Position numbers and translations under genes: made by a program. Below, piece by piece: positions 2,774 through 60,849 of a stretch of DNA of 64,000 bases (positions are counted from its first letter, which is position 1; each line of letters begins with the position of its first letter). The notes under the pieces were generated by a model. That model was not told the DNA's origin. It did no database searches and worked only from the letters and a program-made list of their open reading frames with translations. The stretch is from Parcubacteria group bacterium Gr01-1014_31 (lineage in GTDB: Bacteria; Patescibacteriota; Patescibacteriia; Buchananbacterales; GWA2-38-13). The stretch is from the NCBI GenBank assembly GCA_007376135.1, contig VMFR01000001.1, positions 379,016-443,015 of the forward strand, written 5' to 3'.

Positions 2774-2839
2774 AGATCGTATTTTCACAGGGCCACTATA
2801 CCACGCGTGCGCACTGGGGAGCAACGCCCGCGCACGATC

Positions 2840-8240: not shown

Positions 8241-9641
8241 ATGGACCGCGCTAACCGTCGCATGCGAACAACGATACTCGTCATCGGCGACATTGTCTGG
8301 TTGTACCTGGCGCTGTTTGCGACGCTTCAACTCCGTTACGGGGCCGTGGACGCAACGCTTTGGTGGGAACACTTCGGGCCGTTCACCATCGTCTTTGCGC
8401 TGTGGCTGGTCGTGTTCACGGTCTCGCGCTTGTACGACCTCAGCGCCAGCGGCGGACGGACCGATCTGGGCTTCCGGCTGTTCGGCGCACTGCTGGCTTC
8501 GGGCACGATCGCCGCCGCATTCTTCTACCTTGGGCACAACCGGCTGTTCACGCTGCGGCCGCAAAAAGTGCTGGCCTTGGTGCTGGTCGCAAGCTTCGTG
8601 GCGCTCTATGTCTGGCGGCTGCTCCTGCTGACGGCGCTGCGGTCGCAAGCGCTCTCGCGCCGCGTGGTATTCGTCGGCATCCAGCCGATCATCCCGCAGC
8701 TGATCGCGGAACTGGTCGCCAAACCGCAACTGGGGTTCACCCCGGCCGCCTGGATCAAGGTCAACGGCAACGCGGCGCAAAATATCGAAATTTCGAAATT
8801 TCGAAATATTGATGTGCCAACCTACCATGAAGTCACGGGTCTGCCCGATCTGTGCCAACGCCACGGCGCCGATCTCATTGTCTCGGGCATCAGCCCGCGC
8901 CAGCATACCACCCTGCTCAAAGAGCTGGTGGCGTGCCTGCCGCTGAGGATCGATTTCTCCGACCTTTCCACGTTCTACGAACGCATCACGGGGAAAGTGC
9001 CCGTCGACGCCATCGAGCAGGTCTGGTTCCTGGAAAACCTTCAGGAGGGCACCAAACGGCCGTATGAATCCATCAAGTGGATCACCGACCTGGCCCTGGC
9101 GGCCGTGCTGTTGGCGCTCACGCTGCCCATCCTTCCTCTGCTGTATATTCTGGTGAGGTTCACCAGCCCCGGCCCGTTCCTCTTCAAGCAGACCCGCGTC
9201 GGCCAGGCCGGACGCAAATTCACGGCGATGAAGATCCGCACCATGGTGGTGGACGCTGAAAAGCACGGGCCGCAGTGGGCCAGCCACAACGATGCGCGCG
9301 TCACCACCGTCGGCCGCTTTTTGCGCCAGATCCGGCTGGACGAGATCCCGCAGCTCGTCAACGTCCTGCGCAGCGAGATGAGCCTGATCGGTCCGCGTCC
9401 GGAGCGGCCGGAGTTCATCGAGCAGCTCAAACAAAGCATCCCCTTTTACGAGGAACGGCTGCTGGTCAAACCCGGCCTGACCGGCTGGGCGCAGGTGAAT
9501 TTTCCGTACGGCGCTTCGGTGCAAGACGCGCTGGAAAAACTGCAGTACGACCTCTTCTATATCAAACACCGCTCACTCGGACTGGACCTGAGCATTGTGC
9601 TGCGCACGATCGGCACGATGCTTGCCCACAGCGGCCGCTAA
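8241..9641 (+). CDS. Polyprenyl-phosphate hexose-1-phosphate transferase (WbaP/WcaJ-type priming phosphoglycosyltransferase)
   Basis: C-terminal bacterial sugar transferase domain ILVRFTSPGPFLFKQTRVGQAGRKFTAMKIRTMVVDAE...IRLDEIPQLVNVLRSEMSLIGPRPERPEF; N-terminal TM helices. ORF-track GTG at 8121 rejected; ATG 8241 (MDRANRRMRTTILVIGD) is preferred, and ATG 8166 is also possible. Confidence 0.85.
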   Translation: MDRANRRMRTTILVIGDIVWLYLALFATLQLRYGAVDATLWWEHFGPFTIVFALWLVVFTVSRLYDLSASGGRTDLGFRLFGALLASGTIAAAFFYLGHNRLFTLRPQKVLALVLVASFVALYVWRLLLLTALRSQALSRRVVFVGIQPIIPQLIAELVAKPQLGFTPAAWIKVNGNAAQNIEISKFRNIDVPTYHEVTGLPDLCQRHGADLIVSGISPRQHTTLLKELVACLPLRIDFSDLSTFYERITGKVPVDAIEQVWFLENLQEGTKRPYESIKWITDLALAAVLLALTLPILPLLYILVRFTSPGPFLFKQTRVGQAGRKFTAMKIRTMVVDAEKHGPQWASHNDARVTTVGRFLRQIRLDEIPQLVNVLRSEMSLIGPRPERPEFIEQLKQSIPFYEERLLVKPGLTGWAQVNFPYGASVQDALEKLQYDLFYIKHRSLGLDLSIVLRTIGTMLAHSGR

Positions 9642-10955
9642 TCCGAATATTCCCGCGACGGCCAGCGCGAACAGCTGCGGCTGCACCGGCTGGCGGTAGC
9701 GCGCGTGCGACAACGGACTGGAAAGCAACGCGGTCAGCACAATGGCTGCCGCGAACAGGAAAGCAAATGTCCTGGCCGGCGGAGACAGACGACGGGCCGC
9801 AAAGGTTCCCGCCAGGGCCAGCAGCGTGATGACCGCGCCGAATACCATGCCGGCCAGATGCGCCAGGGAAGGCGCGTCGGTTCTGGTCAACGCCCCGACC
9901 ACGGTCCCCCACTGCCGACGCGTCAATGCCGTGGTAATATCGACCGGCCGTTCCCCGCTGGGTAATCCGACCGATTCGGCCACGTCCCGCCACCCCGACT
10001 GCAAAAAGAACGGGGTGGTTTTTATGATATACAGCGGCACATACGACCGCCACTCGGAAAGCAGGATCTCGCGCGCCCGGCGCCCGGCAAACGCATCCCG
10101 CACGCGTTCGTCGTTCGGCAGCGCTTCCCACTCGCGGATCAGTTCCCCGCGCACCTGCCCCGGCGTTTTTCCTTCGCGCAAGGCCTGGGCCTGGTTGGCG
10201 TGGAAAAAGAGCAGCAAAAAATTGCTCTGCATCGTCAATTTCCATAACCCGAACTGGCGTCCGTTGCGGACGATCCACGGGGACAGCAACCCGCCAATCA
10301 CGACCACCATGACCAGCGTGCCTACCAGCGCGCGCCGCAGATCAACCTTACCGTGCCCAAACAACCACCAGACCATCAGCAACCCCGCCAGATAGATGCC
10401 CGAAAAACGCACGTAGGTAGCCGCGGCAAGTGTTACCCCGCACCCCGCGAGCCACGGCCAGCCCCGAGTCCACGCGCGCACGTAACAGTAGAACGCCAGC
10501 ATCAAAAGGGTAACGAACAGCGTATCGCTCATCAAAAGATTTGCCTGCAGCACCGTAAACGGTTCCAGGCCATAGAGCAAAGATGACCAGAATGCGACGC
10601 GGCGTCCGAACACCGCATCCATCACAAGGAACGCGAGCGCAATGGTCGCCAGGGAAAGCAGCTGCTGGACCAGGGCGGTGAACCAAGGCGCCGCATTGGC
10701 CGCCATCGTTGCCGCCAGAAACAGCGGGTAACCGGGCAGGTGCAGCATCGTGGGCGTCGGCGGATCCCCGGGGTACTCGGAAAATACGCCGTACTGTCGC
10801 AGATTTTGCGCTGCGGTCAGATACAGCGGCGAGTCATTGGAGCGCAAAAAAACCGCGTCTCCCTGCGTGACGGCGGAAACGAACAGGGCGGCGCGCAGCG
10901 CGACGCCAAAGATCAGCACGATGAGCAGCGGGCGGGAAACGGCGGGCCACACCAT
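9573..10955 (-). CDS. GT-C fold glycosyltransferase, ArnT/PMT-like (GT39/GT83 family)
   Basis: 460 aa polytopic membrane protein: PGYPLFLAATMA...LVMDAVFGRRVAFWSSLLYGLEPFTV...LMSDTLFVTLLMLAFY, typical of 4-amino-arabinose/mannosyl transferase superfamily N-termini. Converges with and overlaps the phosphoglycosyltransferase gene by 69 nt. Confidence 0.7.
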   Translation of the reverse strand: MVWPAVSRPLLIVLIFGVALRAALFVSAVTQGDAVFLRSNDSPLYLTAAQNLRQYGVFSEYPGDPPTPTMLHLPGYPLFLAATMAANAAPWFTALVQQLLSLATIALAFLVMDAVFGRRVAFWSSLLYGLEPFTVLQANLLMSDTLFVTLLMLAFYCYVRAWTRGWPWLAGCGVTLAAATYVRFSGIYLAGLLMVWWLFGHGKVDLRRALVGTLVMVVVIGGLLSPWIVRNGRQFGLWKLTMQSNFLLLFFHANQAQALREGKTPGQVRGELIREWEALPNDERVRDAFAGRRAREILLSEWRSYVPLYIIKTTPFFLQSGWRDVAESVGLPSGERPVDITTALTRRQWGTVVGALTRTDAPSLAHLAGMVFGAVITLLALAGTFAARRLSPPARTFAFLFAAAIVLTALLSSPLSHARYRQPVQPQLFALAVAGIFGLAAAVGKHRADRAQHNAQVQSE

Positions 10956-10958
10956 AGA

Positions 10959-14318
<3,360 letters not shown>

Positions 14319-14319
14319 A

Positions 14320-15279
14320 TCAGACGCTGTGGCGCGGGCCGTTGAGCACCTCGCGCACGACGTACTTGGGCCGCCGCTTAACCTCTTCGAAAATGCGCCC
14401 CAGATACTCGCCAATGAATGACAGCGACAGGAGCTGCACGGTGCCGAAGAACAACACGAGCAGAATGATGGTACGGATGCCCCGCTGGCCGGCCGGCAGG
14501 TACCCAAAGATATAGCCGCCGAGGTAAAACAGGATCGCCAGCGACGTCACGGCGACTAAAATGCCGGAGAGCGTCGTGATCCATTCCAGCGGCGCATAGG
14601 AGAACGAGAACAGTCCTTTGCGCGCGGTGCGCAGGTACCCCAACATTGTGAACTTGGTCGTGCCGGCGGTCCGCTCGCCGCGATGGTACGGAATGCCCGT
14701 GTGCTTGAACCCCACCCAGGCGCGTAACCCCCGCACGAAGCGGTTGCGCTCGGGCATGGCGTTGATGACGTCCACCACCTTGCGGTCCATCAGGGAAAAT
14801 TCCGAAACGTCCAGCGGAATATCCAGGTACGACGTTGATTTCATCAAACGGTAGAACAGTTTGTACCCGGCACGCCGCAGCACGCTCCCCTGGCGGCGTT
14901 TCCGAATGCCGTAGACGATGTCGTAACCTTCCTGCCACTTGCGGACGAACTCGGGGATCATTTCCGGCGGGTCCTGCAGGTCGGCGTCGATCCACACCAC
15001 CGCGTCCCCCGTCGCATACTCGGTGCCCGCCGAATAGGTGTGGTCCGGGGAACCGAAATTCCGCGACAGCAGCACGACCACGACGTTCGGGTCGGCTTTG
15101 GCCAGCTCGCGGTAGACGGTTTCCGAACCGTCGGTGGAACCGTTGTCGGCAAAGACGATCTCGTAGCGGGTGCTGACCTGAGCGAGCACTTCGCGCAGCC
15201 GCTGGTAGGTGCGCCGCAAATTCTCCTGCTCGTTGTAGCAGGGCACGACGACGGATATCTTTTTGTCGGTCAGCGGCAT
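14320..15279 (-). CDS. GT2 polyprenyl-phosphate sugar synthase (GtrB/ArnC/DPM1-like, C-terminal TM helices), paralog 1
   Basis: [14 protein letters not shown]...[11 protein letters not shown]...[36 protein letters not shown] plus two C-terminal hydrophobic helices. Confidence 0.8.
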
Positions 15280-15282
15280 AGA

Positions 15283-16587
15283 TTATGGGTAACGGGAAAA
15301 GAATTCCTTGAACACGGAGATCTCATAATCCATTTCCTCGTCGCCCAGGCCATGGAAACAGCCAACCCAGAAGGAGTTGCGCATGATGGCGTCGGTGTTG
15401 TCCAGACTTTCCGCGATGCGGTGCGGCACGCCGTAGGTTTGCAGGTAGGGCTGCTTGGCAAGGTTGCCCGCGAGGATGAGGCGCGTCACCACCTTGCGCG
15501 ATTCCAAGTAGTTGACCAATTCTTCGCGCGTGAAGGGTGAGCCCGGCTTGACCGTCAGATAAAAACCAAACCAGCTGGGAACCGTATTGGCGGGCGCTTC
15601 GGGCAGCTGCAGAAATTTCGTGAACGGTAGCAATCCCGCGTGCAAACGCCCGGCGTTGCGGCGCCGTTGCGCGGTGAACTCGGGCAATTTCTTGAACTGG
15701 GTGATGCCGGCGGCGATCTGGATGTCGGTAATTTTCAAGTTATACCCGATCTCGGTGAAGATGTACTTGTGGTCGTAGCCGGCCGGCATCTGCCCGAACT
15801 GGAAGGCAAAGCGCCTGCGGCACACATTGTCCTCGCCGGTGCGGCACCAGCAGTCGCGGCCCCAATCGCGGAAACGGCGCACCAGCTGCGCGAGTTCCTT
15901 GGTCTTGGCGACCACCGCTCCCCCCTCGCCCATGGTCATGTGGTGGCCGGCGTAGAAACTGAACGTCGCCAGGTCGCCGAAACTGCCGACCGGCTTGCCC
16001 GCGACCGTGCTGCCAATGGCGTCGCAACAGTCCTCTACCAGCCACAGCTTGTGCTGGTCGCAGAACGCGCGCACGGCGGGCGCATCGAACGGCACGCCCA
16101 AACTGTGCGGCATGAAGACCGCCTTTGTTTTGGGTGAATAGGCCTGGCGCAGTCGCTCCACGGTCGTGTTCATCGTCGCCAATTCTACGTCCACGAATAC
16201 CGGTATGGCGCCGTACAGGATAAGCGGATTGATGGTCGTCGGAAATCCGGCGGCAATGGTGATGACCTCGTCGCCGGGTTTCAGCCGCCGTTCGCCCAGC
16301 TTTTCCGACGTCAGCGCAGCTGTGGCTAAAAGGTTGGCGGAACTTCCCGACGTGGTCGTGATGCAGCTGGCAGCGCTAAAGTGCACGGCAAACATTTTTT
16401 CAAACACGGTGGCGTTCTTGCCTTCGGTCCACCAGCCTTCCAGCACCGCCTCAACCATGGCCGCCATATCGTCGGCGTCAATGCGCTTGCCCGACGCGGA
16501 AACCGGCGTCTCACCGGGGATGAATTTCTTGGCGCCGTAATTTTTACGGTAGTGTTCGTCGATGTACTGGCGCAACTGGTCGTCCAT
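15283..16587 (-). CDS. rfbH: CDP-6-deoxy-D-xylo-4-hexulose-3-dehydrase (E1; RfbH/DdhC/AscC, PMP-dependent DegT-family)
   Basis: TTTSGSSANLLATAALTSEKLGERRLKPGDEVITIAAGFPTTINP...IPVFVDV; active-site His pair FSFYAGHHMTMGEGG (His in the Lys position); Cys-rich FRDWGRDCWCRTGEDNVCRRRF; GYDHKYIFTEIGYNLKITDIQAA. About 434 aa like E1, longer than ColD. Confidence 0.85.
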   Translation of the reverse strand: MDDQLRQYIDEHYRKNYGAKKFIPGETPVSASGKRIDADDMAAMVEAVLEGWWTEGKNATVFEKMFAVHFSAASCITTTSGSSANLLATAALTSEKLGERRLKPGDEVITIAAGFPTTINPLILYGAIPVFVDVELATMNTTVERLRQAYSPKTKAVFMPHSLGVPFDAPAVRAFCDQHKLWLVEDCCDAIGSTVAGKPVGSFGDLATFSFYAGHHMTMGEGGAVVAKTKELAQLVRRFRDWGRDCWCRTGEDNVCRRRFAFQFGQMPAGYDHKYIFTEIGYNLKITDIQIAAGITQFKKLPEFTAQRRRNAGRLHAGLLPFTKFLQLPEAPANTVPSWFGFYLTVKPGSPFTREELVNYLESRKVVTRLILAGNLAKQPYLQTYGVPHRIAESLDNTDAIMRNSFWVGCFHGLGDEEMDYEISVFKEFFSRYP

Positions 16588-16590
16588 ACG

Positions 16591-16619
16591 TTGACAAAAA
16601 CTGAAAAAAATGATACTGT
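16591..16619 (+). promoter_or_regulatory. Possible sigma70-type promoter (TTGACA-N17-TACTGT with an upstream TG) in the divergent rfbH / HAD intergenic region
   Basis: AT-rich 120-bp intergenic region; consensus -35 hexamer ttgaca at 16591-16596. A strong RBS AAGGAGG sits 6 nt before the TTG start of the HAD gene. Confidence 0.3.
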
Positions 16620-16709
16620 CCTGCCTTACGTTCTTTTGCCGCGCGTCGTTGATTTAGTGTAAACTACGCGCAATTTTTTGACAACCAACCCCCAACAAGG
16701 AGGTTCCGC

Positions 16710-17453
16710 TTGGGAAAAACAAAGATTCGCGCAGTCTTTTCCGACCTGGGCAATGTGGTGCTGCGATTCTGCCCTCGCAACGAACGCCTGTGGCAATTAG
16801 CGCAGCTCGCCAACCCCGGCCGGTTCGGCCAGCCGGGGACCCTCTCCCTCTGTTCCCTGGAGCGGGCTGCCTTCAACGCGTCGCTTCAACAGTCGGAAAT
16901 CCTGGACTTCTCCCGTCCGGGCGAGGACGCAGCCTGGCGGATGGACGTCGGCCAGGTCTCGCACGGAGAATTCTACCGCGCGTTCCTCGCGGCCGTGGGC
17001 TGCAGCGAAGGCGACTTTCCGCCGGCACGCTTCTGGATGGCCTATTCGGCCGACCTGGTGGCCGTCCACCCGGTCGCCAACCTGCTGCGGCAGCTCCAAC
17101 ACCGCGGGACGAAGATCATCGCGGCCACCAACACTGAGATGTGGCCGACCGACCTGGTGTGGCGCCAGACCGGACTGCGCTTCGATGGCGAAGTCTACTC
17201 CTGGCGCGTCGGGCACAAGAAGCCCCGCCGCGAGTTTTACGAAGCGTGCCGGGCAACGGCGCGCGAGGCACTCTCCGAGCCGACGCTGGATTATCCGGCC
17301 TGCGTGCTCATCGACGATATCGCCGCCAACTGCGACAGCATCCGGCGCCTCGGCGGCCACGCCATCCGGTTCAAGGCCAGCGCCTGCCCACTAACGCTGG
17401 CCTGGCAGCTGCAAAAGCTGCGGCAGCAACTCTCCGAACTCAAGCTGCTATGA
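16710..17453 (+). CDS. HAD-superfamily sugar-phosphate phosphatase (YihX-like, DLGNV variant motif I)
   Basis: VFSDLGNVVLRF resembles YihX IFDLGNVIVDI; C-terminal motif IV LIDDIAANCDSIRRLG. TTG start preceded by AAGGAGG. Confidence 0.55.
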   Translation: MGKTKIRAVFSDLGNVVLRFCPRNERLWQLAQLANPGRFGQPGTLSLCSLERAAFNASLQQSEILDFSRPGEDAAWRMDVGQVSHGEFYRAFLAAVGCSEGDFPPARFWMAYSADLVAVHPVANLLRQLQHRGTKIIAATNTEMWPTDLVWRQTGLRFDGEVYSWRVGHKKPRREFYEACRATAREALSEPTLDYPACVLIDDIAANCDSIRRLGGHAIRFKASACPLTLAWQLQKLRQQLSELKLL

Positions 17454-17506
17454 GCAGCCGGCGTTTCACCGATGTGAACACCAACCCCAAAGAAGGAGGA
17501 TGAACC

Positions 17507-18058
17507 TTGAACGCGAACGACAAAACAGAGCTCCTGCGACTGTTCGGCATCCTGGTGGACGAACGGCGGCAGGGCATCCCGATGGACGGCCAAGTCTGGG
17601 AGGCAAGCCTCCAGATCTTCCCGCAGGTGGCCATCGAAACGGTCTTCCTGCGCCGCGTCGACGATGGCACTGCCGGCGGCACCATCGAGGTACTGCTCAC
17701 CAAACGGCCGCCCGACGACCGGTGGTTCGCCAACCAGGTGCATTCGCCCGGCAGCATCAACCGCGCCCGCGAGCGTACCGACGTCACCATCGCGCGGGTG
17801 GTCAAACGGGAGCTGGGCGGTTCCGCCAAGCTGATCTCAGCGCGGCAGGTAGCAGCGCTGAACTTTTGGGACGAGCCGCGCGGCTGTGGCTGGAGCGTGG
17901 TGTACTGCTGCGAGGTGGAAGGCGACCCGACCAACGGGACGTGGTACCCCATCACGCAGCTGCCGGAAAACCTCATCTACGGCCACTTCAACGTCATCAT
18001 GGTGGCCGCCTCCGTGCTCCTTGCCGAACCCCGCCCGTTCGGAAAGTGGTCGTGGTGA
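17507..18058 (+). CDS. Nudix hydrolase, GDP-mannose mannosyl hydrolase (Gmm/NudD)-like, paralog A
   Basis: VAIETVFLRRV...EVLLTKRPPDDRWFANQVHSPGS...ARVVKRELGG follows the Gmm pattern (PLVSLDFIV...LLGKR...GYWFVPGG...ELG). Confidence 0.55.
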   Translation: MNANDKTELLRLFGILVDERRQGIPMDGQVWEASLQIFPQVAIETVFLRRVDDGTAGGTIEVLLTKRPPDDRWFANQVHSPGSINRARERTDVTIARVVKRELGGSAKLISARQVAALNFWDEPRGCGWSVVYCCEVEGDPTNGTWYPITQLPENLIYGHFNVIMVAASVLLAEPRPFGKWSW

Positions 18059-18166
18059 ACGGCCGCTGAACAACCACTGCTCTTCCCTCTCCCCCGCATT
18101 CCGGCGACAGGCCCAGATCCCTTGGCCTGTCTTTTTTTACCCCTGCGGCTCGTGTACAATGCCAGC

Positions 18167-18655
18167 ATGCAACCGAATGACGAGCAGGTCCTGTTGCGAC
18201 TGCTAAAAAAACTTGCTGTCGCACAGCGGCAACGGCGGCCAATGCCGCCGGCAGTATTTGACGCGCTCCTCAAAGTCGTTCCGTTGGTCACCGTGGAAAC
18301 CGTCATTACTCGCACCGTGAAAGGAAAAACGCAGGTGCTGCTGACCCGCCGCTCAAAAAATGAAACCCGCTACCCGGGCATCTGGCACGTGCCCGGTTCG
18401 TTCCTGCGGAACCTCGAGCAGACCAAGGACGTACTTTCTCGCATCGCAAAAAAAGAACTTGGAGTACCCAAGTTCACCGAAGCAAAATTCGTCACCTGGC
18501 TGAACGTCTACGACTGTCCTGTCGGACATTTCGTGTCCATCTTCTACCGTTGCGAGCTGGGAAAAGCTACCACGCGGGGCCGGTGGTTCTCGCCAACGAA
18601 ACTGCCGGCCGGTGTCCTTGCTTACCACCGCGACATCGTCGCGGCCGTTGCCTAG
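18167..18655 (+). CDS. Nudix hydrolase, Gmm-like, tandem paralog B
   Basis: Collinear with paralog A (LLRLLKKLAV...VPLVTVETVITRTV...QVLLTRRSKNETRYPGIWHVPGSFL...RIAKKELG). ATG 18167 is preferred over ORF-track 18122. Confidence 0.5.
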   Translation: MQPNDEQVLLRLLKKLAVAQRQRRPMPPAVFDALLKVVPLVTVETVITRTVKGKTQVLLTRRSKNETRYPGIWHVPGSFLRNLEQTKDVLSRIAKKELGVPKFTEAKFVTWLNVYDCPVGHFVSIFYRCELGKATTRGRWFSPTKLPAGVLAYHRDIVAAVA

Positions 18656-19626
18656 GGTTCCAGCCGCCGCCCAATGGTCGCCGCAGGAAGTTGGCGGTCG
18701 TCGTTCAGGATCTCCCGCACAATGAACCGCGGACGGGCTTTCACTTCCACGAACATCCGCCGCAGGTACTCGCCGATGATGGCAATGCCCAGCAGCTGCA
18801 CGCCGCCCAAAAACAGCATTAAAAGCACGATGGTGGGCACGCCGCGCGGCGCGTCGGGATTGATGAAGTAGGCGACCAGGTACGCGATGATGAGCAAGGC
18901 GGAACCCGCCACCACTGTCAGCGCGATCTTGGACAGCCACTCCAAGGGCTTGAAAGAAAAATTGATGATGAGGGTGAGCGCCCAGTAGAGGTCTTTGAGC
19001 CAGTTGGTATCCGATACACCGGCCTCGCGATTTTTGCGCTCGTACGGCACGCCGGCCTGGCGGAATCCCACGTACGCGCGCATGCCGCGGATATACAGGT
19101 CGCGTTCGGTGACGTACGCGACCGCATCAATTGCCTTGCGGTCCAACAGCGAGAAATCACCGGCATCCAGCGGAATGGTGATGTAGGCCAATCGTTTGAA
19201 CAGCCGATAGAACGCCTTGTAGGACAGCCGGCGCAGCCATGTGCCCTGGCGGCGCACCCGCACGCCGTAGACGACCTCAAAACCCTGGCGCCATTTTTCC
19301 ACCAGCTGCGGGATGAGCTCGGGCGGGTCCTGTAGGTCGGCGTCTAAGAGCACCGCACAGTCGCCGTTGCAGTATTGCAGCCCGGCCAAGTACGACGGTT
19401 GCGGCGAACCGCCATTGCGTGCCATTAGGATGACGCGCACACGCGAGTCGGCCGCGATCAGCTCGCGGTAGATTGTCTCCGAGGTATCGGTGGACGCGTT
19501 GTCCACGTAGATGAGTTCGTACGGCATCCCCAATTGCCGCAACACCGCGCTGACGCGTTCATAGTTGCGCTTGAGGTTTGGCGCTTCGTTGTAGCAGGGA
19601 ATGATGGCCGAGATCTTTTTCTCCAT
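18652..19626 (-). CDS. GT2 polyprenyl-phosphate sugar synthase (GtrB/ArnC-like), paralog 2
   Basis: ISAIIPCYNEAPNL...YVDNASTDTSE...[36 protein letters not shown] plus C-terminal TM helices. Confidence 0.8.
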   Translation of the reverse strand: MEKKISAIIPCYNEAPNLKRNYERVSAVLRQLGMPYELIYVDNASTDTSETIYRELIAADSRVRVILMARNGGSPQPSYLAGLQYCNGDCAVLLDADLQDPPELIPQLVEKWRQGFEVVYGVRVRRQGTWLRRLSYKAFYRLFKRLAYITIPLDAGDFSLLDRKAIDAVAYVTERDLYIRGMRAYVGFRQAGVPYERKNREAGVSDTNWLKDLYWALTLIINFSFKPLEWLSKIALTVVAGSALLIIAYLVAYFINPDAPRGVPTIVLLMLFLGGVQLLGIAIIGEYLRRMFVEVKARPRFIVREILNDDRQLPAATIGRRLEP

Positions 19627-19632
19627 ACACCG

Positions 19633-20388
19633 TTATTTAGGAGGCTGGCGCAGCCCACCCAGCCGGGCCAGCCGGGGGCAACGCATCACCGTATAGGAAC
19701 GGTCGCTGTCCTGGCCGGGAGTTTGTCGTTCCTCCACCCAGCGCAGCGTGCCGTCCGGCAGCGTCTTTTTATATAAAGGAATAACTCCGGTCGGCGTGAA
19801 TCCTGTGCGCTCGTACAAACGGATGGCGCGCGGATTGTCGGTCATCACCTTCAAACGCAACTCATGCAAATCCAGTGCGGTGAACGCCCAATCCATCAGT
19901 GTTTGCACCGCTGGGGTCATCGCGCCCGGCAGGAGGTCGGCGCGGCCGCGCAGGATGCTGTCGATCTCGCAGTGCCGTTCGGCAAAGTTGCAGCGGAACA
20001 ACCCCAAATGTCCGACGTACTCCCCCGCCGGAGTCTGCAGCCACGCCAGCAGCCGGTCGGGAGCCTGCAACACCGCGTTGCGCAGCCAACGCGTCGTGCC
20101 TTCTACCGTAATTTCAAAACGTTCCGGATACCAACGCTGATTTTCCTGGCGCCAGCGCGCCAGGTATTCCACGTGCGCCGGGTCATCCAGCGACGCGGCA
20201 GTGACCGGCGAAATTTCGGCAACTCGAACGCCTGACATGACGACCGGCAACGGAGCACCCCCGAACGCCGCCAAATCACCGCGCTTCAAGGCGGAGAACA
20301 CCCCCGTGACGTACTGTTCGTACGTCGCTGCCATAGCGATTGCGTTACCCGCCCGCACGGCTGCCGTGCCGGGCCAGGTAATCATCAT
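19633..20388 (-). CDS. GNAT-family N-acetyltransferase with N-terminal extension (WecD/RffC-like architecture)
   Basis: C-terminal GNAT core LHELRLKVMTDNPRAIRLYERTGF. Start may be the internal Met at 20334 (MAATYEQY), which removes the 44-nt overlap with rfbG. Confidence 0.6.
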   Translation of the reverse strand: MMITWPGTAAVRAGNAIAMAATYEQYVTGVFSALKRGDLAAFGGAPLPVVMSGVRVAEISPVTAASLDDPAHVEYLARWRQENQRWYPERFEITVEGTTRWLRNAVLQAPDRLLAWLQTPAGEYVGHLGLFRCNFAERHCEIDSILRGRADLLPGAMTPAVQTLMDWAFTALDLHELRLKVMTDNPRAIRLYERTGFTPTGVIPLYKKTLPDGTLRWVEERQTPGQDSDRSYTVMRCPRLARLGGLRQPPK

Positions 20389-21373
20389 ACCACGCGATCG
20401 TCCGCTTGAGGCCCTCCTCCAGCGTGATTCCCGGCGTCCAACCCAATACCTGGCGCGCCTTCTCCGAAGACAGGTACTGCGCGGGAATTTCGTTGGTCGC
20501 CGTATTGAGGATGCGCGGCGGCAGGGGTTTCCCCATCAATTCGGTTATCTTTGCCACCAGCTGCAGCACGGTCTGCGGCTCGCCGCTGGCGAAGTTGAAT
20601 GCCTGTCCTTCCAGGCGCTTTTCGCGCAAATGTTGGGCCAGCGTCAGATAGGCGTTCGCCACGTCTTCAATGTAGAAATAATCGCGGACCAATTGGCCGT
20701 TGCTCCTGACGATCGGGTGCTCATCATGCCACAGCGACTGGATGGTGCCCGGCACGATGCGGTTGAAGTTCAGGTCGCCGCCGCCGAAAAAGTTGCCGCA
20801 GCGGACGATGCCGACCGGCAACCGATAGGTATGCCAATAGCTCTGCGTGATAAGGTCGACGCAGCTTTTGCTCACGTCGTAGGGATAGCGGCCGACCAGC
20901 GGCGTGTCCTCGGTGTAGGGAAGCTGGTCCTGGTTGCCGTAGGCCTTGTCGGACGACGCGACCAGCACCCGCTGCACGTGCGGGTTGCGCCGCGCGGATT
21001 CCAGCAGGTTCCAGGTGCCGCGGATGTTAGATTCCAGCGTGGAGAGCGGATTACGGTTGGCAATGCCGACGATCGCCTGCGCGCCAAGATGGAACACCGT
21101 ATCGATCTCGTGTTCGTTGAGCACGCGTTCCAGCAGGTCGCGGTCCAAAAGGTCGCCAAAGACCTGCGCCACGTGCGGCAGATACCCGCAGGTGTACAGG
21201 TGCGAACGCGGAGGAATATCGCGCACCAGCACCGTGACATTGGCGCCGCAGTCCACCAGCTGCTTGATCAGCCAGGGTCCCAGCAGCCCGGTCGGACCGG
21301 TAACAAAAACGCGGCGGTCATACCAAAAACCGCGCGCTGCTGCTGGATTGCTGTCCGTCAATGGAGTGCTCAT
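20345..21373 (-). CDS. rfbG: CDP-glucose 4,6-dehydratase
   Basis: RRVFVTGPTGLLGPWL...VFHLGAQAIVG...SSDKAYGN...YPYDVSKSCVDL...VRCGNFFGGGD, collinear with RfbG/DdhB. Confidence 0.85.
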   Translation of the reverse strand: MSTPLTDSNPAAARGFWYDRRVFVTGPTGLLGPWLIKQLVDCGANVTVLVRDIPPRSHLYTCGYLPHVAQVFGDLLDRDLLERVLNEHEIDTVFHLGAQAIVGIANRNPLSTLESNIRGTWNLLESARRNPHVQRVLVASSDKAYGNQDQLPYTEDTPLVGRYPYDVSKSCVDLITQSYWHTYRLPVGIVRCGNFFGGGDLNFNRIVPGTIQSLWHDEHPIVRSNGQLVRDYFYIEDVANAYLTLAQHLREKRLEGQAFNFASGEPQTVLQLVAKITELMGKPLPPRILNTATNEIPAQYLSSEKARQVLGWTPGITLEEGLKRTIAWYDDYLARHGSRAGG

Positions 21374-21450
21374 GCGATGAAAAAATCCCTTGAAAGCCGG
21401 GGTTTACCGTACAAAATTTTCCGTCAGATGTCAACTCTCCGGCCGGCCAG

Positions 21451-22617
21451 CTACCCCGCGCCGAACGCCCGCTGCAGGCGCGAAATTCCCTCCCGGCAAT
21501 TGGCCAGACTGGTTGCGAAACACAACCGCACGTACCCTTCGCCGGCCGGACCGAAGGCGGTACCCGGCAGCAGGGCGACATTGGCGCGCTGCAACGCCGC
21601 TGCAGTGAACTCCGCCGAGGTCATACCTGTGCCAGTAATGTTGGGAAACGCGTAGAGCGCCCCCGCCGGCTTCACGCAAGTAACGCCGGGCAATATACCC
21701 AGCCCCGCCGCGATAACATCCCGCCGCTGACGGTATTCGGCGACTTGACCGGCCACCCATTTACTCCCCTGCTGGAGGGCAACCGCGCCGGCTTCCTGAA
21801 TGAACGGTGGCACGGTGGAAATGAGCATTTGCAGCAGCTGCCCGACTTTTTGCATCAGCGGTGATGGGCCGATCCCCCACCCCAGACGCCAGCCGGTCAT
21901 CGCGTAGGTCTTGGAAAAACTGCGGATGATGATGGAGGACAACTGGCAGCGGTCGATGGCCGCGGGGCTGGAAAATGGCGTATCGTAACACAGTTGCGCG
22001 TAGGTCTCATCGGACAATAAATAAATGCCGCGCTGCGTGCACAGCTCCGAAAGTGCGCGGATCTCGTTGGCAGACATCACCGCGCCGGTGGGGTTACCGG
22101 GGGAGTTGATGATTACCAGGCGCGTTTTGCCGGTGCAGACGGCCGCTACGTCGCGCGGGTCCAAGCGAAAACCATTTTCCTCGCGCGCGGCAACGGGCAC
22201 CGGACGCACCGACTGAAACTCGCACACCGAGGCGTACGTGGGGTACGCCGGCTCCGGAATAATGACCTCGTCGCCGGGGTTGGCAACGCACCGGATGACC
22301 GTGTACAAAAAAGAAACCGCCGGAGCGATGACGATCTGCTCCCGCGCAGGATGAAAACCAAGTTCGCTTTTGGTCGCCGCGGCGATCGCCTGGGGCAGAT
22401 TGCCGCTGCCCGTGTAGTGCGTCTCGCCCCGCCGCAGCGCGTCAACCGCGGCGTCTACGATGAGCGGCGGCGTCACCGCGTCGGGCTCGCCCAATTCAAA
22501 ATGGATAATGGAACGCCCGGCCGCTTCCAGCTTCTTCACCTGGTCATGGAACGCGAACGTCGCGCGGGACCTCAGACTGCCGGCAGCAGCCGAAAGCGGC
22601 GGCATAGGAATCAACAC
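21451..22617 (-). CDS. Class I/II pyridoxal-phosphate aminotransferase (AspC-like)
   Basis: IIHFELGEPDAVTPP...NSPGNPTGAV...RSFSKTYAMTGWRLGWGIG; the SFSK PLP-lysine motif is present. Confidence 0.75.
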   Translation of the reverse strand: MLIPMPPLSAAAGSLRSRATFAFHDQVKKLEAAGRSIIHFELGEPDAVTPPLIVDAAVDALRRGETHYTGSGNLPQAIAAATKSELGFHPAREQIVIAPAVSFLYTVIRCVANPGDEVIIPEPAYPTYASVCEFQSVRPVPVAAREENGFRLDPRDVAAVCTGKTRLVIINSPGNPTGAVMSANEIRALSELCTQRGIYLLSDETYAQLCYDTPFSSPAAIDRCQLSSIIIRSFSKTYAMTGWRLGWGIGPSPLMQKVGQLLQMLISTVPPFIQEAGAVALQQGSKWVAGQVAEYRQRRDVIAAGLGILPGVTCVKPAGALYAFPNITGTGMTSAEFTAAALQRANVALLPGTAFGPAGEGYVRLCFATSLANCREGISRLQRAFGAG

Positions 22618-22621
22618 GGTA

Positions 22622-23419
22622 CTACTTTGCCCCCGCGTCCCACGATACCCACGGCCGGACGCCGCGGTCCCACATTTTGTTCAACTCCTCGTAGTGAAGG
22701 TACGTATCCATGGCATAGAAAAAGCCTTCGTGCTTGTAGACCGCCAGCTGCCGTTCAGCGGCCAACTGCCGCAACGGCTGCTGCTCCAGGATGCAGTTGC
22801 CGTCCGGGGACAGGTAGCGAAAGATGCCGCGGTTGAAGACAGCAAATCCCCCATTGACGTAGCCTTCCAGCTGCGGTTTCTCGCTGAAACTGGTCACCAG
22901 GTTGCCGTCTATTTCCAGGATGCCGAACCGCGAATTCGGATGCACGCCGCTCAAGGTGGCGATCTTTCCCTGCTGACGGTGAAATTCCACGACCTTGGGG
23001 ATGTTGACGTCCGAGACCCCGTCGCCGTAGGTCATGAGGAACGTCTCGTCATTGCCCAGGTACGGCTCGATACGGGCGATGCGCGAGCCCGTCAGCGTCT
23101 CCTGCCCGGTATCCACGAACGTAATGGTCCAATCCTCCAGCATCGCGGGCTTGTGAAAGCTGACGCGCTCACGCCCGTCCCCGCGCAGTTTCACCGTCAC
23201 GTCGTTGACCATTTCCTCGAATTTGAGGAAATAGTCGCGGATCATGTCGCCCTTGTAGCCCAAGCAGAGGACGAAATCCTTGTACCCGTACTGCGAGTAG
23301 AGCTTCATAATATGCCACAAAATGGGCCGGCCGCCGACCGACACCAAAGGCTTGGGCTTGTATTCGGTTTCCTCGCGCAGGCGGGTGCCCTTGCCGCCGC
23401 ATAACAAGACGACTTTCAT
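22622..23419 (-). CDS. rfbF: Glucose-1-phosphate cytidylyltransferase
   Basis: MKVVLLCGGKGTRLREETEYKPKPLVSVGGRPILWHIMKLYSQYGYKDFVLCLGYKG...LTGSRIAR...TYGDGVSDVNI...HPNSRFG, near-collinear with Salmonella RfbF/DdhA. Confidence 0.9.
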   Translation of the reverse strand: MKVVLLCGGKGTRLREETEYKPKPLVSVGGRPILWHIMKLYSQYGYKDFVLCLGYKGDMIRDYFLKFEEMVNDVTVKLRGDGRERVSFHKPAMLEDWTITFVDTGQETLTGSRIARIEPYLGNDETFLMTYGDGVSDVNIPKVVEFHRQQGKIATLSGVHPNSRFGILEIDGNLVTSFSEKPQLEGYVNGGFAVFNRGIFRYLSPDGNCILEQQPLRQLAAERQLAVYKHEGFFYAMDTYLHYEELNKMWDRGVRPWVSWDAGAK

Positions 23420-24345: not shown

Positions 24346-26211
24346 CTATTTCAACCACCGCCGGTGCCAGAGCTGAAAGCACATCAGCGTCCAGAGCTCC
24401 TTGTAGCGATTGGCGCGGCCGCTCTGGTGGTCGGACATCAACCGGGCAACCGCGGCGGGCTGGAAAATATTTTGGCGCTTGAGCGCGTCGGCGGACAAAA
24501 GTTCCTGTGCCAATGGTTTGAGGTCGGTGCGCAGCCAGGAACCGATGGGCACGGCAAACCCCTGCTTGCGCCGCGCCCCGATACCGGCCGGCAGGCGGTC
24601 GGCCATCAGGCGCTTCAGCAGGTACTTGGTCGTGAAGCGGCGCAGCCGCAACGAGGGCGGCAAGCTGGCGACGAACTCCACGATGCGGTAATCCAAAAGC
24701 GGGGCGCGCACCTCGAGCGACGAATACATCGAGGCACGGTCCACCTTGGCGAGGATATCATCCTGCAGGTAGCCCTTGAGGTACCAGTACGTCAGCCGCG
24801 TCCAGTGCTCCAGCGCGGCGCGGCCGGTCAATTGCCCGGTGGGGTCGGCGATCGCGTCCCCGCGGCACTGCTCGCGCGCGTCGTCGGTCAACAGTTTGGA
24901 CAGCTGATCATTCCGGAACGACCCGATCCACGCCTGATGCCACTGGTCGTGCGGGTACTGCAGTCCGGCAATGAACCGCTGGGCTTTGTAGCGCCAAGTC
25001 AGGTAATCGTACGAACGCGGACGCATACGCTCGGCCAGCTCATTGAGCCTCCGCCACAGCAACGGCATCGGCGGCAGCGCGTGCGCGATACGCTCGGCCT
25101 GGAACGTCGGATAGCCCAGGAAAAGTTCATCGCCGCCATCGCCGCCCAGCACCACCGTCACCTGGCGGCGCGCGAATTGCGACAGCAGGTAGGTGGGAAT
25201 GAGCGACGGATCGGCGAACGGTTCGTCGGTCAGGTCCGCCAGCTTGGGCACCAGCTCCAACGCCTGCGCGGGTCGCAACACCTGCTCGTAGTGTTCCGTG
25301 CCGAGGTGCTGCGCCACCCGCCGGGCGAAACTTGACTCATCGAACGTCGCTTCGGTGAACCCGATGGAGAACGTTTTGACGGGGCGCGAGCTTGCCGCCT
25401 GCGCGTAGTAGGCAATGGTGCTCGAGTCAATGCCGCCGGACAGGAAAATGCCCAGCGGCACGTCGGAAACCAAACGGCGCTTCACGGCATCGGCGAGCAA
25501 CGTATCCAACCGCGGCAGGGCTTCGGCCAGGGTGATACGCTCGGTATGCAGCGGTACGTCCCAATAGCGGGCGACCTGCGGCTCGCGCCCGGACTGGTAC
25601 TCCAAGTAACTTCCCTCCGGCAGCTTGCGCATGCCGGCAAATATCGCGCGAGGCGTAGGCACGTACTCGCGCAGAAGATACTGCGCCAGGCTCAACCAGT
25701 CCAGCTCGCGGGGGACCAACGGGTGCTGCAACAGCGCCTTGGGCTCGGAGCCATACACCATTGTTCCCTGCCATAGCCCCCAGTACAGCGGCTTTTTCCC
25801 CAGGCGGTCACGGGCCAAAACGATCCGCTGGCTCTTTCCATCCCACAGAGCGACGGCGAACATCCCGTTCATTTTTGCGAACACTTCGCTCCCCCACTGC
25901 TCATACCCGTGCACGATAACCTCGGTGTCCGATTGCGTTGCAAAATGGTGTCCGGCACGCTGCAACTCCGTTTTCAGCTCGCGGTAGTTGTAGATCTCGC
26001 CATTGAAGGTGACCGCAACGGATTTGTCCTCGTTGAACATCGGCTGATGGCCGCCAGCGAGGTCAATGATGGACAATCGGCGGAACCCCAGGCCCACGCC
26101 CTCACTAATAAAAAAACCGTCGTCATCGGGCCCGCGATGGGCAATGACGTCGGTCATCCGCTTCAGGATGGGCTGGTCACCCTGGCCAACGTAGCCGGCA
26201 ATGCCGCACAT
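24346..26211 (-). CDS. Asparagine synthetase B-family glutamine amidotransferase (WbpS-like sugar amidotransferase candidate)
   Basis: N-terminal MCGIAGYVG (Cys nucleophile), SIIDLAGGHQPM, PP-loop SGGIDSS. Confidence 0.85.
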   Translation of the reverse strand: MCGIAGYVGQGDQPILKRMTDVIAHRGPDDDGFFISEGVGLGFRRLSIIDLAGGHQPMFNEDKSVAVTFNGEIYNYRELKTELQRAGHHFATQSDTEVIVHGYEQWGSEVFAKMNGMFAVALWDGKSQRIVLARDRLGKKPLYWGLWQGTMVYGSEPKALLQHPLVPRELDWLSLAQYLLREYVPTPRAIFAGMRKLPEGSYLEYQSGREPQVARYWDVPLHTERITLAEALPRLDTLLADAVKRRLVSDVPLGIFLSGGIDSSTIAYYAQAASSRPVKTFSIGFTEATFDESSFARRVAQHLGTEHYEQVLRPAQALELVPKLADLTDEPFADPSLIPTYLLSQFARRQVTVVLGGDGGDELFLGYPTFQAERIAHALPPMPLLWRRLNELAERMRPRSYDYLTWRYKAQRFIAGLQYPHDQWHQAWIGSFRNDQLSKLLTDDAREQCRGDAIADPTGQLTGRAALEHWTRLTYWYLKGYLQDDILAKVDRASMYSSLEVRAPLLDYRIVEFVASLPPSLRLRRFTTKYLLKRLMADRLPAGIGARRKQGFAVPIGSWLRTDLKPLAQELLSADALKRQNIFQPAAVARLMSDHQSGRANRYKELWTLMCFQLWHRRWLK

Positions 26212-35738: not shown

Positions 35739-37022
35739 TCAGATTTCGTCGCTCCGACCGAGCGGAACCGGAAACGTAGCCGCGCTACGGTGAGGATTGC
35801 GCGACCGCCTGCACACCGCGGCGAGCTTGGACGGCGGAAGTTCCAAAAAAACGCGGTGTGGGCTCACCACGACCACGGCGTCAAAACGAAGCGCGGTCTT
35901 CCTTGGATCGGCCACGCCCGCGATCCCCGGGTGGTGGGACAGCTCCTGTTCGGTCAGCAGCGGATCGTAGGCATACACCTTGGCCTTCAGCTTGGCAAAA
36001 CCTTCGACCAACTCGAACGCCCGACTGTTGCGCGTGTCATTGACGTTCTCCTTGAAGGTCAGCCCGAGCATCAGGACCATGGCGTCGCCAATACCGCGGC
36101 CGGCGGCATGCAGCATCGTCACCACCTGGCGCACGATGAACTTGGGCATGTAGTTATTGATCTCGCGCGCGCCCAGAATGAGTTTTGGTTCCAGCCCCTT
36201 GCGCAGCGCTTCATGCACCAGATAGTACGGGTCCACCGCGATGCAGTGGCCGCCCACCAGCCCGGGCGTGAACCGCTGGAAATTCCACTTGGTCGCCGCC
36301 GCCGCGATGACGTCGCGCGTGTCCAGTCCAAGCTTGTCGAATACCAGGGCGAGCTCGTTCATCAGGGCGATGTTGACGTCGCGCTGGATATTTTCCACCA
36401 CCTTGGCTGCTTCCGCGACCTTGATTCCCGGCGCGCGGTAGACCGTGGTGATCTGGCCGTAGACGGCCGCGATCCGTTCCAACGCCGCCGCATCGCGGCC
36501 CGCGACGATCTTCACGATACGATCGATGGCATGCTCGCGGTCGCCCGGGTTGACGCGCTCGGGGGAATAGCCGAGCTGGAAATCCTTGTCCGCGGTGAAC
36601 CCCGACTCCCGTTCCAGGATCGGCAGGCAGATATCCTCCGTGCAGCCCGGGTGCACCGTGCTCTCGTAGACCACCATCGCCCCGCGCTGCAAATACTTGC
36701 CGACCATGGCCGAGGCCTGCTCGACAAAACTGAAGTCCGGCACGTTGTTGACCGTCACGGGGGTCGGCACCGCGATGATGATGAAACTGGCCTTGGCAAT
36801 AACCGCAGGGTCGGCGCTGAACTGTACCGCGCATTCCTTCAGATCGCCGACCTCGCCGGTCGGGTCAATGCCCTGGCGGAGCTTGGCGATCTTTTCCTTA
36901 TTGCTGTCATACCCGTGCACCTTGAACTTACGGGAAAGCAGGGACGCCAGCGGCAGCCCGACGTAGCCCAAACCGACCACGCACACGGTTTCCGGTCCTC
37001 GCTGCGGTGGATTTTTTGGCAT
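35739..37022 (-). CDS. Nucleotide-sugar 6-dehydrogenase (UDP-glucose / UDP-GlcNAc 6-dehydrogenase, TviB/WbpA/Ugd family)
   Basis: VCVVGLGYVGLPLASLL...VHGYDSNKEKIAKLRQGIDP...IIIAVPTPV. ORF-track start 37133 is a spurious extension; ATG 37022 (MPKNPPQRG) is preferred. Confidence 0.85.
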   Translation of the reverse strand: MPKNPPQRGPETVCVVGLGYVGLPLASLLSRKFKVHGYDSNKEKIAKLRQGIDPTGEVGDLKECAVQFSADPAVIAKASFIIIAVPTPVTVNNVPDFSFVEQASAMVGKYLQRGAMVVYESTVHPGCTEDICLPILERESGFTADKDFQLGYSPERVNPGDREHAIDRIVKIVAGRDAAALERIAAVYGQITTVYRAPGIKVAEAAKVVENIQRDVNIALMNELALVFDKLGLDTRDVIAAAATKWNFQRFTPGLVGGHCIAVDPYYLVHEALRKGLEPKLILGAREINNYMPKFIVRQVVTMLHAAGRGIGDAMVLMLGLTFKENVNDTRNSRAFELVEGFAKLKAKVYAYDPLLTEQELSHHPGIAGVADPRKTALRFDAVVVVSPHRVFLELPPSKLAAVCRRSRNPHRSAATFPVPLGRSDEI

Positions 37023-37046
37023 ATACAAAAAAGGCTTTTCGGCCAA

Positions 37047-37076
37047 ACTATACCACAAAACCGATAAGTTTTGCAA
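37047..37076 (-). promoter_or_regulatory. Sigma70-like promoter (TTGCAA-N18-TATAGT) upstream of the sugar dehydrogenase gene
   Basis: Minus-strand reading cTTGCAAaacttatcggttttgtggTATAGTttgg, about 25 nt upstream of ATG 37022. Confidence 0.4.
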
Positions 37077-37093
37077 GATTAAGCCGAAATCAG

Positions 37094-37127
37094 AAAACCG
37101 CCGCCCACGGGATATGGACGGCGGCTC
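37094..37127 (-). terminator. Probable rho-independent terminator after the 700-aa hypothetical gene
   Basis: Minus-strand reading CCGCCG...(14 nt)...CGGCGG followed by TTTT. Confidence 0.35.
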
Positions 37128-37144
37128 ATTCATCCTCCCACTAC

Positions 37145-57058: not shown

Positions 57059-57099
57059 GAGAACGGTGATTTTTCTTGGCACGACGGGCTCAACAAGGT

Positions 57100-57993: not shown

Positions 57994-57996
57994 CCT

Positions 57997-59043: not shown

Positions 59044-59052
59044 CTTCAGCCT

Positions 59053-60843: not shown

Positions 60844-60849
60844 TTCTCT

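Follow-up and report, generated by a model that had tools for sequence, protein, structure and literature searches.

Which sugar is made from a set of cytidine diphosphate (CDP)-3,6-dideoxyhexose genes that includes an E1-type 3-dehydrase, lacks both the dedicated E3 reductase and a CDP-sugar 4-reductase, and is accompanied by an aminotransferase and an N-acetyltransferase? This question is raised by positions 15,283 to 23,419 of a 64-kb stretch of contig VMFR01000001.1 from Parcubacteria group bacterium Gr01-1014_31, hereafter the window, in which essentially all long open reading frames (ORFs) were scanned against Pfam. We propose that the genes in this region probably form one half of a larger set, the half that supplies the acceptor and tailors the product. 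The set as a whole is distributed over three transcription units and would make a C-4 acyl-branched 3,6-dideoxyhexose, activated with CDP and akin to erwiniose and yersiniose. Acyl-branched deoxysugars (yersiniose, erwiniose and caryophyllose) are rare surface antigens, and the logic of their biosynthesis was unified only in 2022.

The CDP-sugar genes and their 3-dehydrase

The sequence-only reading had described a near-textbook RfbF-RfbG-RfbH core together with a class-I aminotransferase and a GNAT, and all five ORFs exist, on the minus strand. The RfbF/DdhA-like glucose-1-phosphate cytidylyltransferase (22622-23419) matches TIGR02623 over its full length, with 300.0 bits against a cutoff of 300.25. 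The RfbG/DdhB-like CDP-glucose 4,6-dehydratase (20345-21373) is a divergent short-chain dehydrogenase/reductase (SDR) whose best NCBIfam match, TIGR02622, reaches 206 bits against a cutoff of 278. Its closest PDB matches are the CDP-glucose 4,6-dehydratases 1wvg and 1rkx, with which its SSDKAY and YxxxK motifs align, and it also weakly matches CDP-tyvelose 2-epimerase in the same database. We take the Asp-Lys pair of the SDK motif to be typical of CDP enzymes. RfbH/DdhC (15283-16587) scores 596 bits with NF011936, against a cutoff of 423. The near-textbook description is therefore borne out for RfbH and not for RfbG, with RfbF just short of its cutoff.

RfbH aligns end to end with the E1 enzyme of Yersinia pseudotuberculosis (PDB 3bcx; 474 bits, 49.5% identity) and contains YAGHHMTMGEGG and DCWCRTGEDNVC. 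Specifically, the first His of its GHH motif aligns with E1 His220, the residue fixed by the H220K mutant entry 3bb8, and the His-for-Lys substitution claimed earlier is thereby confirmed. Three Cys residues had been counted in the earlier reading; a fourth (EDCCDA) lies 57 residues upstream, and the complete C-X57-C-X1-C-X7-C spacing is that of Yersinia E1 3bcx. A four-Cys [2Fe-2S] motif is shared by E1 and SpnQ and is missing from ColD (PMC8987622). Because RfbH retains the catalytic His and every one of the four Fe-S ligands, it is predicted to be an E1/SpnQ-type CDP-4-keto-6-deoxyglucose 3-dehydrase, dependent on pyridoxamine 5'-phosphate (PMP), a [2Fe-2S] cluster and an electron donor, and not a ColD-like enzyme. 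The ColD-like mode of action that had been offered as an option is rejected on the complete Fe-S motif and on the bit scores, 166 for ColD against 474 for E1.

In the rfbF operon, the genes are tightly spaced in the order rfbF-AT1-rfbG-GNAT-GT2a. AT1 is a class-I (AspC-fold) aminotransferase (21451-22617; PF00155, E 8.5e-54), and the GNAT N-acetyltransferase (19633-20388; PF13302/PF00583) belongs to a cassette-specific family; its ORF overlaps the rfbG 3' end by 44 nucleotides, in agreement with the overlap reported before. The last gene encodes GT2a, an ArnC/GtrB/PgfS-like polyprenyl-phosphate glycosyltransferase of family GT2 (18652-19626; PF00535), which scores 218 bits with PgfS and 154 bits with ArnC, both under cutoff. 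On the other hand, rfbH is the first gene of an operon of its own, because three plus-strand genes (16710-18655) separate it from the rfbF operon. The CDP-sugar core is not a single transcription unit, a point missed in the earlier reading.

A distant carboligase module linked by synteny

Five plus-strand genes at 57076-63152 encode an ErwJ-like acetylating acetaldehyde dehydrogenase (57076-57993; PF09290, 156 bits), an ErwI/BphI-like 4-hydroxy-2-oxovalerate aldolase (57997-59043; PF00682 and PF07836; TIGR03217 with 398 bits against a cutoff of 286), a YerE/ErwE-like thiamine diphosphate (ThDP)-dependent carboligase of 596 residues with TPP_enzyme N, M and C domains (59053-60843; family TPP-B), a Lys-type sugar aminotransferase of the DegT family (60850-61971; PF01041, E 1e-97) and a second class-I aminotransferase, the TyrB/AspC-like AT2 (61935-63152; PF00155; PRK09257 with 316 bits against a cutoff of 377). 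The acetaldehyde dehydrogenase and aldolase genes stand directly upstream of the ThDP gene. The ThDP enzyme falls under every acetolactate synthase (ALS) equivalog cutoff, and its closest PDB match is 8rph, with 397 bits against at most 228 bits for ALS. The 8rph entry is JanthE, a YerE-like carboligase (PMC12188165). By these matches, the product of 59053-60843 is predicted to be a YerE/ErwE-like ThDP carboligase distinct from ALS, and 57076-60843 a complete, putative ErwJ-ErwI-ErwE-like module. In the erwiniose pathway, ErwJ and ErwI make 4-hydroxy-2-oxopentanoate, ErwE adds the unit derived from it to CDP-4-keto-3,6-dideoxyglucose, which is the E1 product, and ErwF reduces the branch ketone (Steitz et al. 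2022, PMC9306805).

The link between this module and the CDP-sugar genes comes from a census of 83 loci that carry the window's ThDP family (TPP-B, 51-90% identity), in which genes were counted within 10 kb. In 73 of the 83 loci, the ThDP gene is immediately preceded by the aldolase gene, and the acetaldehyde dehydrogenase (64), the E1-type RfbH (52), a GT2a homologue (49), RfbF (39) and RfbG (31) follow in frequency, with the GNAT in 11 and a close DegT homologue in 9. In particular, one Patescibacteria contig, L091, carries the contiguous set RfbF-RfbG-GT2-acetaldehyde dehydrogenase-aldolase-ThDP-GNAT-DegT, with RfbH further along, and the best window matches of its genes are the corresponding dispersed genes, at 39-72% identity (RfbF 48%, RfbG 42%, GT2 53%, acetaldehyde dehydrogenase 65%, aldolase 68%, ThDP enzyme 64%, GNAT 39%, DegT 72%, RfbH 45%). 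The core genes, which in the window lie 36-44 kb from the ThDP module on the opposite strand, are thus contiguous with it in L091, as they are in many other loci. This arrangement is strong evidence that the window's own ThDP enzyme would receive its acceptor sugar from the products of rfbF, rfbG and rfbH. The one-pathway link would therefore explain why no RfbS/RfbJ/Prt- or RfbE-type CDP-sugar 4-reductase or epimerase gives an NCBIfam match among the window SDRs, an absence that had been noticed before.

On these gene identities, motifs and synteny, we propose the following route. RfbF would form CDP-glucose, the RfbG-like SDR would convert it to CDP-4-keto-6-deoxyglucose, and RfbH, with PMP and its [2Fe-2S] cluster, would take off the 3-hydroxyl group to give CDP-4-keto-3,6-dideoxyglucose, the electrons coming from a reductase encoded outside the window, presumably a general ferredoxin/flavodoxin system by analogy with SpnQ. 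The acetaldehyde dehydrogenase and the aldolase (57076-59043) would make 4-hydroxy-2-oxopentanoate, which the ThDP enzyme would decarboxylate to attach the acyl unit at the C-4 ketone. The aminotransferases encoded beside the ThDP gene (DegT and AT2) and the GNAT would replace the usual ErwF-type ketoreductase, so that the side-chain ketone is probably aminated and N-acetylated. GT2a would then load the sugar on polyprenyl phosphate for one of the GT-C enzymes of the window, and AT1, which comes from a second type of cassette, may either provide a 2-oxo-acid donor from an amino acid or aminate the branch. The CDP-linked amino or acetamido sugar suggested by the sequence-only reading is a reasonable product in this respect; its stop at a simple amino-dideoxyhexose is not, given the ErwJ-ErwI-ErwE-like module.

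Probable branch amination and the class-I aminotransferase AT1

The gene that usually follows the ThDP gene encodes an SDR of about 300 residues, which falls in one cluster in 39 of 41 cases, belongs to the Pfam Epimerase family and takes the position of ErwF. In slots without this SDR, a GNAT is joined either by a DegT or, in L157 and L124, by a class-I aminotransferase, or else a class-I aminotransferase stands by itself, as in L094, L095, L121 and L144. In the window, DegT and AT2 occupy the slot and no SDR is present; homologues of AT2 are found directly 3' of the ThDP gene in L094 and L121. Class-I/II aminotransferases of at least five separate lineages stand directly beside YerE-like ThDP genes, namely the AT1 clade described below, the AT2 group, the L157/L124 pair, L144 and L095. 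The DegT protein of the window has a Lys at the site of the E1 His, and its closest PDB match is perosamine synthetase (225 bits). The earlier reading, which named only an aminotransferase of the AspC type and not of the DegT family, is corrected in this respect.

The GNAT had been called WecD-like. The WecD model is absent from its NCBIfam matches at E ≤ 1e-3, and the protein is an Acetyltransf_3 member that weakly matches PseH (39 bits, cutoff 93) and has SpeG-like PDB matches, which leaves no sequence link to WecD. It aligns over its full length with GNATs encoded directly 3' of ThDP genes. These are paired with DegT in L091, L096, L100, L102, L159 and L160, and with a class-I aminotransferase in L124 and L157; among the nine loci with a close DegT homologue, eight carry the GNAT beside it. 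The pairing of GNAT with a class-I aminotransferase that had been assumed is therefore not the default, and it does occur in the latter two loci. Taken together, these comparisons suggest that the branch ketone is probably aminated in place of being reduced, and then N-acetylated; that DegT performs this side-chain amination is a guess.

AT1 falls under every NCBIfam cutoff, with PRK06108 as its best match (306 bits against 422). In a neighbour-joining tree of 87 homologues, it lies within a clade of 15, across which the pyridoxal 5'-phosphate Lys236 and Arg364 are invariant. All 13 other clade members with enough flanking sequence have a ThDP gene (ALS-like, YerE-like) 12-4421 bp away, and 10 of these lie within 100 bp, whereas none of about 70 homologues outside the clade has an adjacent ThDP gene. 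Additionally, the five AT1 homologues with readable context (46-52% identity) are all in sugar clusters, and a relative whose aminotransferase is 86% identical has the same AsnB-x-RfbF-AT-RfbG order, on a contig too short to give more context. A housekeeping aspartate aminotransferase (AspAT) was considered and is rejected on the tree and synteny, the sugar-cluster context and the sub-cutoff scores, in keeping with the earlier assignment of the AspC-type gene to the sugar cluster. The residues that we take to be equivalent to Lys109 and Trp125 of Thermus AspAT are apparently replaced in AT1, which is too uncertain to decide its substrate.

The ThDP enzymes linked to AT1 form a YerE-like family of their own, TPP-A, with 471 bits to JanthE; the window ThDP enzyme is 33-42% identical to TPP-A, against 55-67% within its own family. 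A typical TPP-A cassette has the order RfbF-RfbG-RfbH-AT-ThDP-SDR-GT2 (L003, L018, L088, L089). No aldolase, acetaldehyde dehydrogenase or GNAT was found in the TPP-A cassettes, and their SDR is 36-44% identical to the ErwF-position SDRs. An AT1-clade gene occurs in none of the 83 aldolase-type (TPP-B) loci, and AT1 as the partner of the window's own ThDP enzyme, which belongs to the other family, is unsupported. On the simplest reading, the clade aminotransferase stands in for the aldolase by converting an amino acid into the 2-oxo-acid donor; Steitz et al. (2022, PMC9306805) mention that 2-oxo acids of this sort can arise by transamination. The window itself is a hybrid, with AT1 lacking TPP-A, lying near the GNAT and belonging to an operon conserved in the relative with the 86%-identical aminotransferase. 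For AT1, supply of the donor 2-oxo acid and direct amination of the sugar or its branch are therefore roughly equal as candidate roles.

One form of direct amination would dispense with the branch. AT1 could aminate CDP-4-keto-6-deoxyglucose, or its 3,6-dideoxy counterpart, at C-4, the GNAT would acetylate the product and GT2a would load the unbranched acetamido sugar, following the logic of ArnB, ArnA and ArnC with a class-I enzyme replacing DegT. The tight rfbF-AT1-rfbG-GNAT-GT2a order, conserved in the relative, and the pairing of the same GNAT family with a class-I aminotransferase in L157 and L124 would be accommodated by such a scheme. We nevertheless consider it unlikely: the 13 other AT1-clade members stand beside a YerE-like ThDP enzyme in cassettes that have an ErwF-position SDR and no GNAT, the GNAT family is found elsewhere only downstream of the ThDP gene, the aldolase-ThDP module would be left without an acceptor sugar, and no earlier example came to light of a class-I enzyme with a nucleotide-sugar ring ketone as its substrate. 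KdnA, considered as a possible class-I precedent on a sugar, was dropped when the PDB search placed it in the DegT family.

A second form of direct amination stays with the acyl-branched sugar. Here, a class-I aminotransferase would aminate the ThDP-made side-chain ketone on the nucleotide sugar and, together with the GNAT, give a 1'-acetamido acyl-branched 3,6-dideoxy-octose, with E1 operating without a dedicated E3. We put this forward tentatively, as a possibility with the balance tilted against it. No description of such an octose was found in the literature searched, and a 2024 survey of more than 200 YerE-like clusters, which lay outside that search, may list variants. If the proposal is true, YerE-like branching enzymes of uncultured bacteria and of DPANN archaea would have acquired class-I aminotransferases, for tailoring or for supply of the donor, on at least five separate occasions.

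Several observations weigh against the assignment of the region to a C-4 acyl-branched, amino-tailored sugar. The ThDP module is 36 kb from rfbF on the other strand, and its link to the CDP-sugar genes within this genome comes from comparative synteny alone. In addition, rfbH shares its transcript with gmd and the gene for an Fcl-like SDR, and not with rfbF and rfbG. No ErwF-type reductase adjoins the ThDP gene, the only candidate SDR in the window (1745-2824) being 27-29% identical. Ring ketones are the normal substrates of DegT enzymes, and the solved structure nearest to the window DegT is that of a C-4 ring aminotransferase. AT1 has no TPP-A partner in the window, and its clade is absent from the TPP-B loci. 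Finally, no product structure is known for any related cassette.

The electron donor and the surrounding glycan island

The claim that no E3 is encoded nearby has held up. Pfam recognizes no ferredoxin-NADP reductase (FNR)-like or plant-type ferredoxin ORF (PF00175, PF00970, PF00111-type) in the window, and none is found in about 5.8 kb past its right end. In a six-frame motif scan of the window, nothing turns up except a Cys pattern that arises by chance where the gmd ORF is extended out of frame; the E3 motif scans are crude regular expressions, and their negative outcome is weak evidence. In the same crude scan of 173 loci, which also returned chance Cys patterns, a single FNR-like ORF appears, in L152 beside rfbH. 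The E1-type proteins of L003, L018, L088, L089 and L091 all retain the His and the Cys motif, and the neighbourhood Pfam lists of the L003, L088, L089 and L091 cassettes contain no E3. As a rule, then, a dedicated E3 is almost always absent from related cassettes. SpnQ provides a precedent, as it works with general ferredoxin/flavodoxin reductase pairs in place of E3 (PMC8987622).

Three further observations concern electron supply. The L152 ORF (6253-6987) encodes a 245-residue FNR-like reductase (PF00175) with no ferredoxin domain, and lies between rfbH and an acetaldehyde dehydrogenase gene. Past the right end of the window, directly after AT2, genes for a 650-residue radical SAM protein, a PurM-like protein and the beta subunit of a 2-oxoacid:ferredoxin oxidoreductase follow (L173:10980-15668), and this order is repeated in the relative L090; a ferredoxin-linked enzyme nearby might bear on the missing electron donor of E1. 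On the other hand, two RfbH homologues of the candidate phyla radiation (CPR), L002:546-1838 and L005:1858-3096 (35-36% identity), which belong to AT1-type cassettes, keep the His and have lost the whole C-x-C-x7-C segment, and look like putative ColD-type, reductase-independent 3-dehydratases.

The window as a whole (G+C about 62%) is a dense glycan-biosynthesis island, with many GT2 and GT4 glycosyltransferases, three GT-C (PMT_2) proteins, a Wzy_C/TPR protein, a Bac_transf initiating transferase, GtrA, UppS, a TviB-like dehydrogenase, AsnB, Gmd and an Fcl-like SDR. Such a 64-kb mosaic makes adjacency weak evidence, and could in principle host an ordinary CDP-3,6-dideoxyhexose of the abequose/paratose type, with E3 and the final reductase encoded elsewhere, beyond the roughly 5.8 kb in view, and with the aminotransferases and the GNAT serving unrelated sugars of the island. 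This is very improbable in our judgement, given that no RfbS/RfbJ/Prt-like or RfbE-like match is present in the window and that the co-location of E1 with the ThDP/aldolase genes (52 of the 83 loci) and the contiguous L091 cassette indicate one pathway.

The rfbH operon (9573-16587, minus strand) continues with GT2b, a second ArnC/GtrB-like polyprenyl-phosphate glycosyltransferase (14320-15279; PF00535; PgfS-like, 248 bits), gmd, the Fcl-like SDR gene, a gene for a 471-residue methyltransferase and a GT-C gene. Gmd is bona fide (TIGR01472, 531 bits against a cutoff of 415), whereas the Fcl-like SDR is divergent (282 bits against 500), and GT2b is the best window match for the GT2 genes of many TPP-B cassettes. 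The operon looks like a second lipid-carrier route, for a guanosine diphosphate (GDP)-6-deoxyhexose, that has its promoter in common with rfbH. That RfbH itself serves this GDP branch, making a colitose-like GDP-3,6-dideoxyhexose with Gmd and the Fcl-like SDR while rfbF and rfbG are left for another product, would fit the co-transcription and the gene content of the ColD/ColC pathway and is barely tenable, as RfbH is 49.5% identical to the CDP-specific Yersinia E1 over its full length, scores 474 bits with it against 166 bits with ColD, keeps the Fe-S motif absent from ColD and has orthologues that accompany RfbF/RfbG and the ThDP module in other loci.

The three plus-strand genes between the two operons encode a HAD-like protein (16710-17453) and two tandem, diverged Nudix-like proteins (17507-18058 and 18122-18655), with weak PF00702 and PF00293 matches among them; the genes converge on the rfbF operon and diverge from rfbH. 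Cassettes L002, L005, L127 and L149 also contain Nudix-like homologues, at 30-36% identity, and the products might be nucleotide-sugar hydrolases. An AsnB-type amidotransferase gene (24346-26211, minus strand) lies just upstream of rfbF, a position kept in L087, and a TviB-like uridine diphosphate (UDP)-sugar 6-dehydrogenase is encoded at 35739-37133 (minus strand); the pair suggests an amidated uronic acid in the same glycan. Two very large ORFs, 44118-47927 (1269 residues) and 37145-39247 (minus strand, 700 residues), have no Pfam match. Among the related loci, a second YerE-like ThDP gene is present in L101 and L109 and also in L094, L108, L114, L116, L122, L143, L162 and L163. The gene just before it in L101 and L109 encodes a protein of about 250 residues, which in L109 is an HpcH/HpaI aldolase. 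The arrangement resembles the caryophyllose pair of M. marinum and hints at two branched sugars or one that is doubly elaborated.

Comparison with known pathways

The window and about 100 related loci indicate that the logic of acyl-branched sugar synthesis is found widely among uncultured lineages, with examples in Patescibacteria/CPR, Armatimonadota, Chloroflexota and DPANN archaea. Several variants swap the usual ketoreductase for an aminotransferase and a GNAT, and a whole clade of the AspC type goes together with YerE-like enzymes. Should the amination reading hold, one would expect amino-branched sugars of a new class and, for class-I aminotransferases, a new function. The synthesis of tertiary alcohols gives the ThDP enzymes biocatalytic interest as well.

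The same parts are found in the erwiniose pathway of Pectobacterium atrosepticum, in which a cytidylyltransferase, a 4,6-dehydratase and E1 are accompanied by a BphI/BphJ-like pair directly upstream of the YerE-like ThDP gene (PMC9306805). Unlike this pathway, the window has no ErwF-type reductase beside the ThDP gene and has DegT, a class-I aminotransferase and, elsewhere, a GNAT instead. It also lacks E3, its genes are divided among three units separated by 36 kb, one more class-I aminotransferase gene sits between rfbF and rfbG, and a polyprenyl-phosphate GT2 suggests delivery on a lipid carrier. In the yersiniose A pathway of Y. pseudotuberculosis (DdhA-D, YerE, YerF), an E1-type 3-dehydrase, the one 49.5% identical to RfbH, likewise feeds a ThDP enzyme that branches C-4. 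Distinct from the window, Yersinia has a dedicated E3, DdhD/AscD (PMC8987622), pyruvate is the direct donor, and YerF reduces the acetyl branch (PMC9306805).

Two further 3-dehydrases and one lipid-modification pathway complete the comparison. SpnQ, the thymidine diphosphate (TDP)-4-keto-2,6-dideoxyglucose 3-dehydrase of spinosyn synthesis, resembles RfbH as a [2Fe-2S] E1-type enzyme with no dedicated E3 in its cluster, but acts on a TDP sugar in secondary metabolism, whereas the window RfbH is closer to the CDP-specific E1. ColD, a GDP-4-keto-6-deoxymannose 3-dehydratase, has the same fold and a His replacing the pyridoxal 5'-phosphate lysine; it works without an Fe-S cluster and uses glutamate to regenerate PMP, whereas the window RfbH keeps the four Cys ligands. 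The Arn pathway (ArnB, the ArnA formyltransferase, ArnC and the GT-C enzyme ArnT) shares amination and N-acylation, loading on polyprenyl phosphate by an ArnC-like GT2 and transfer by a GT-C, and the window encodes two ArnC-like GT2s and three PMT_2 proteins. It differs from Arn in the use of a CDP-hexose rather than a UDP-pentose and of a GNAT rather than a formyltransferase, and in the branching step in between. Taken together, the region is best read, from its gene content, as a pathway of a known kind, which would differ from its relatives in the tailoring by aminotransferase and GNAT, the extra ThDP-linked class-I aminotransferase, the lipid-carrier GT2 and the lack of E3.

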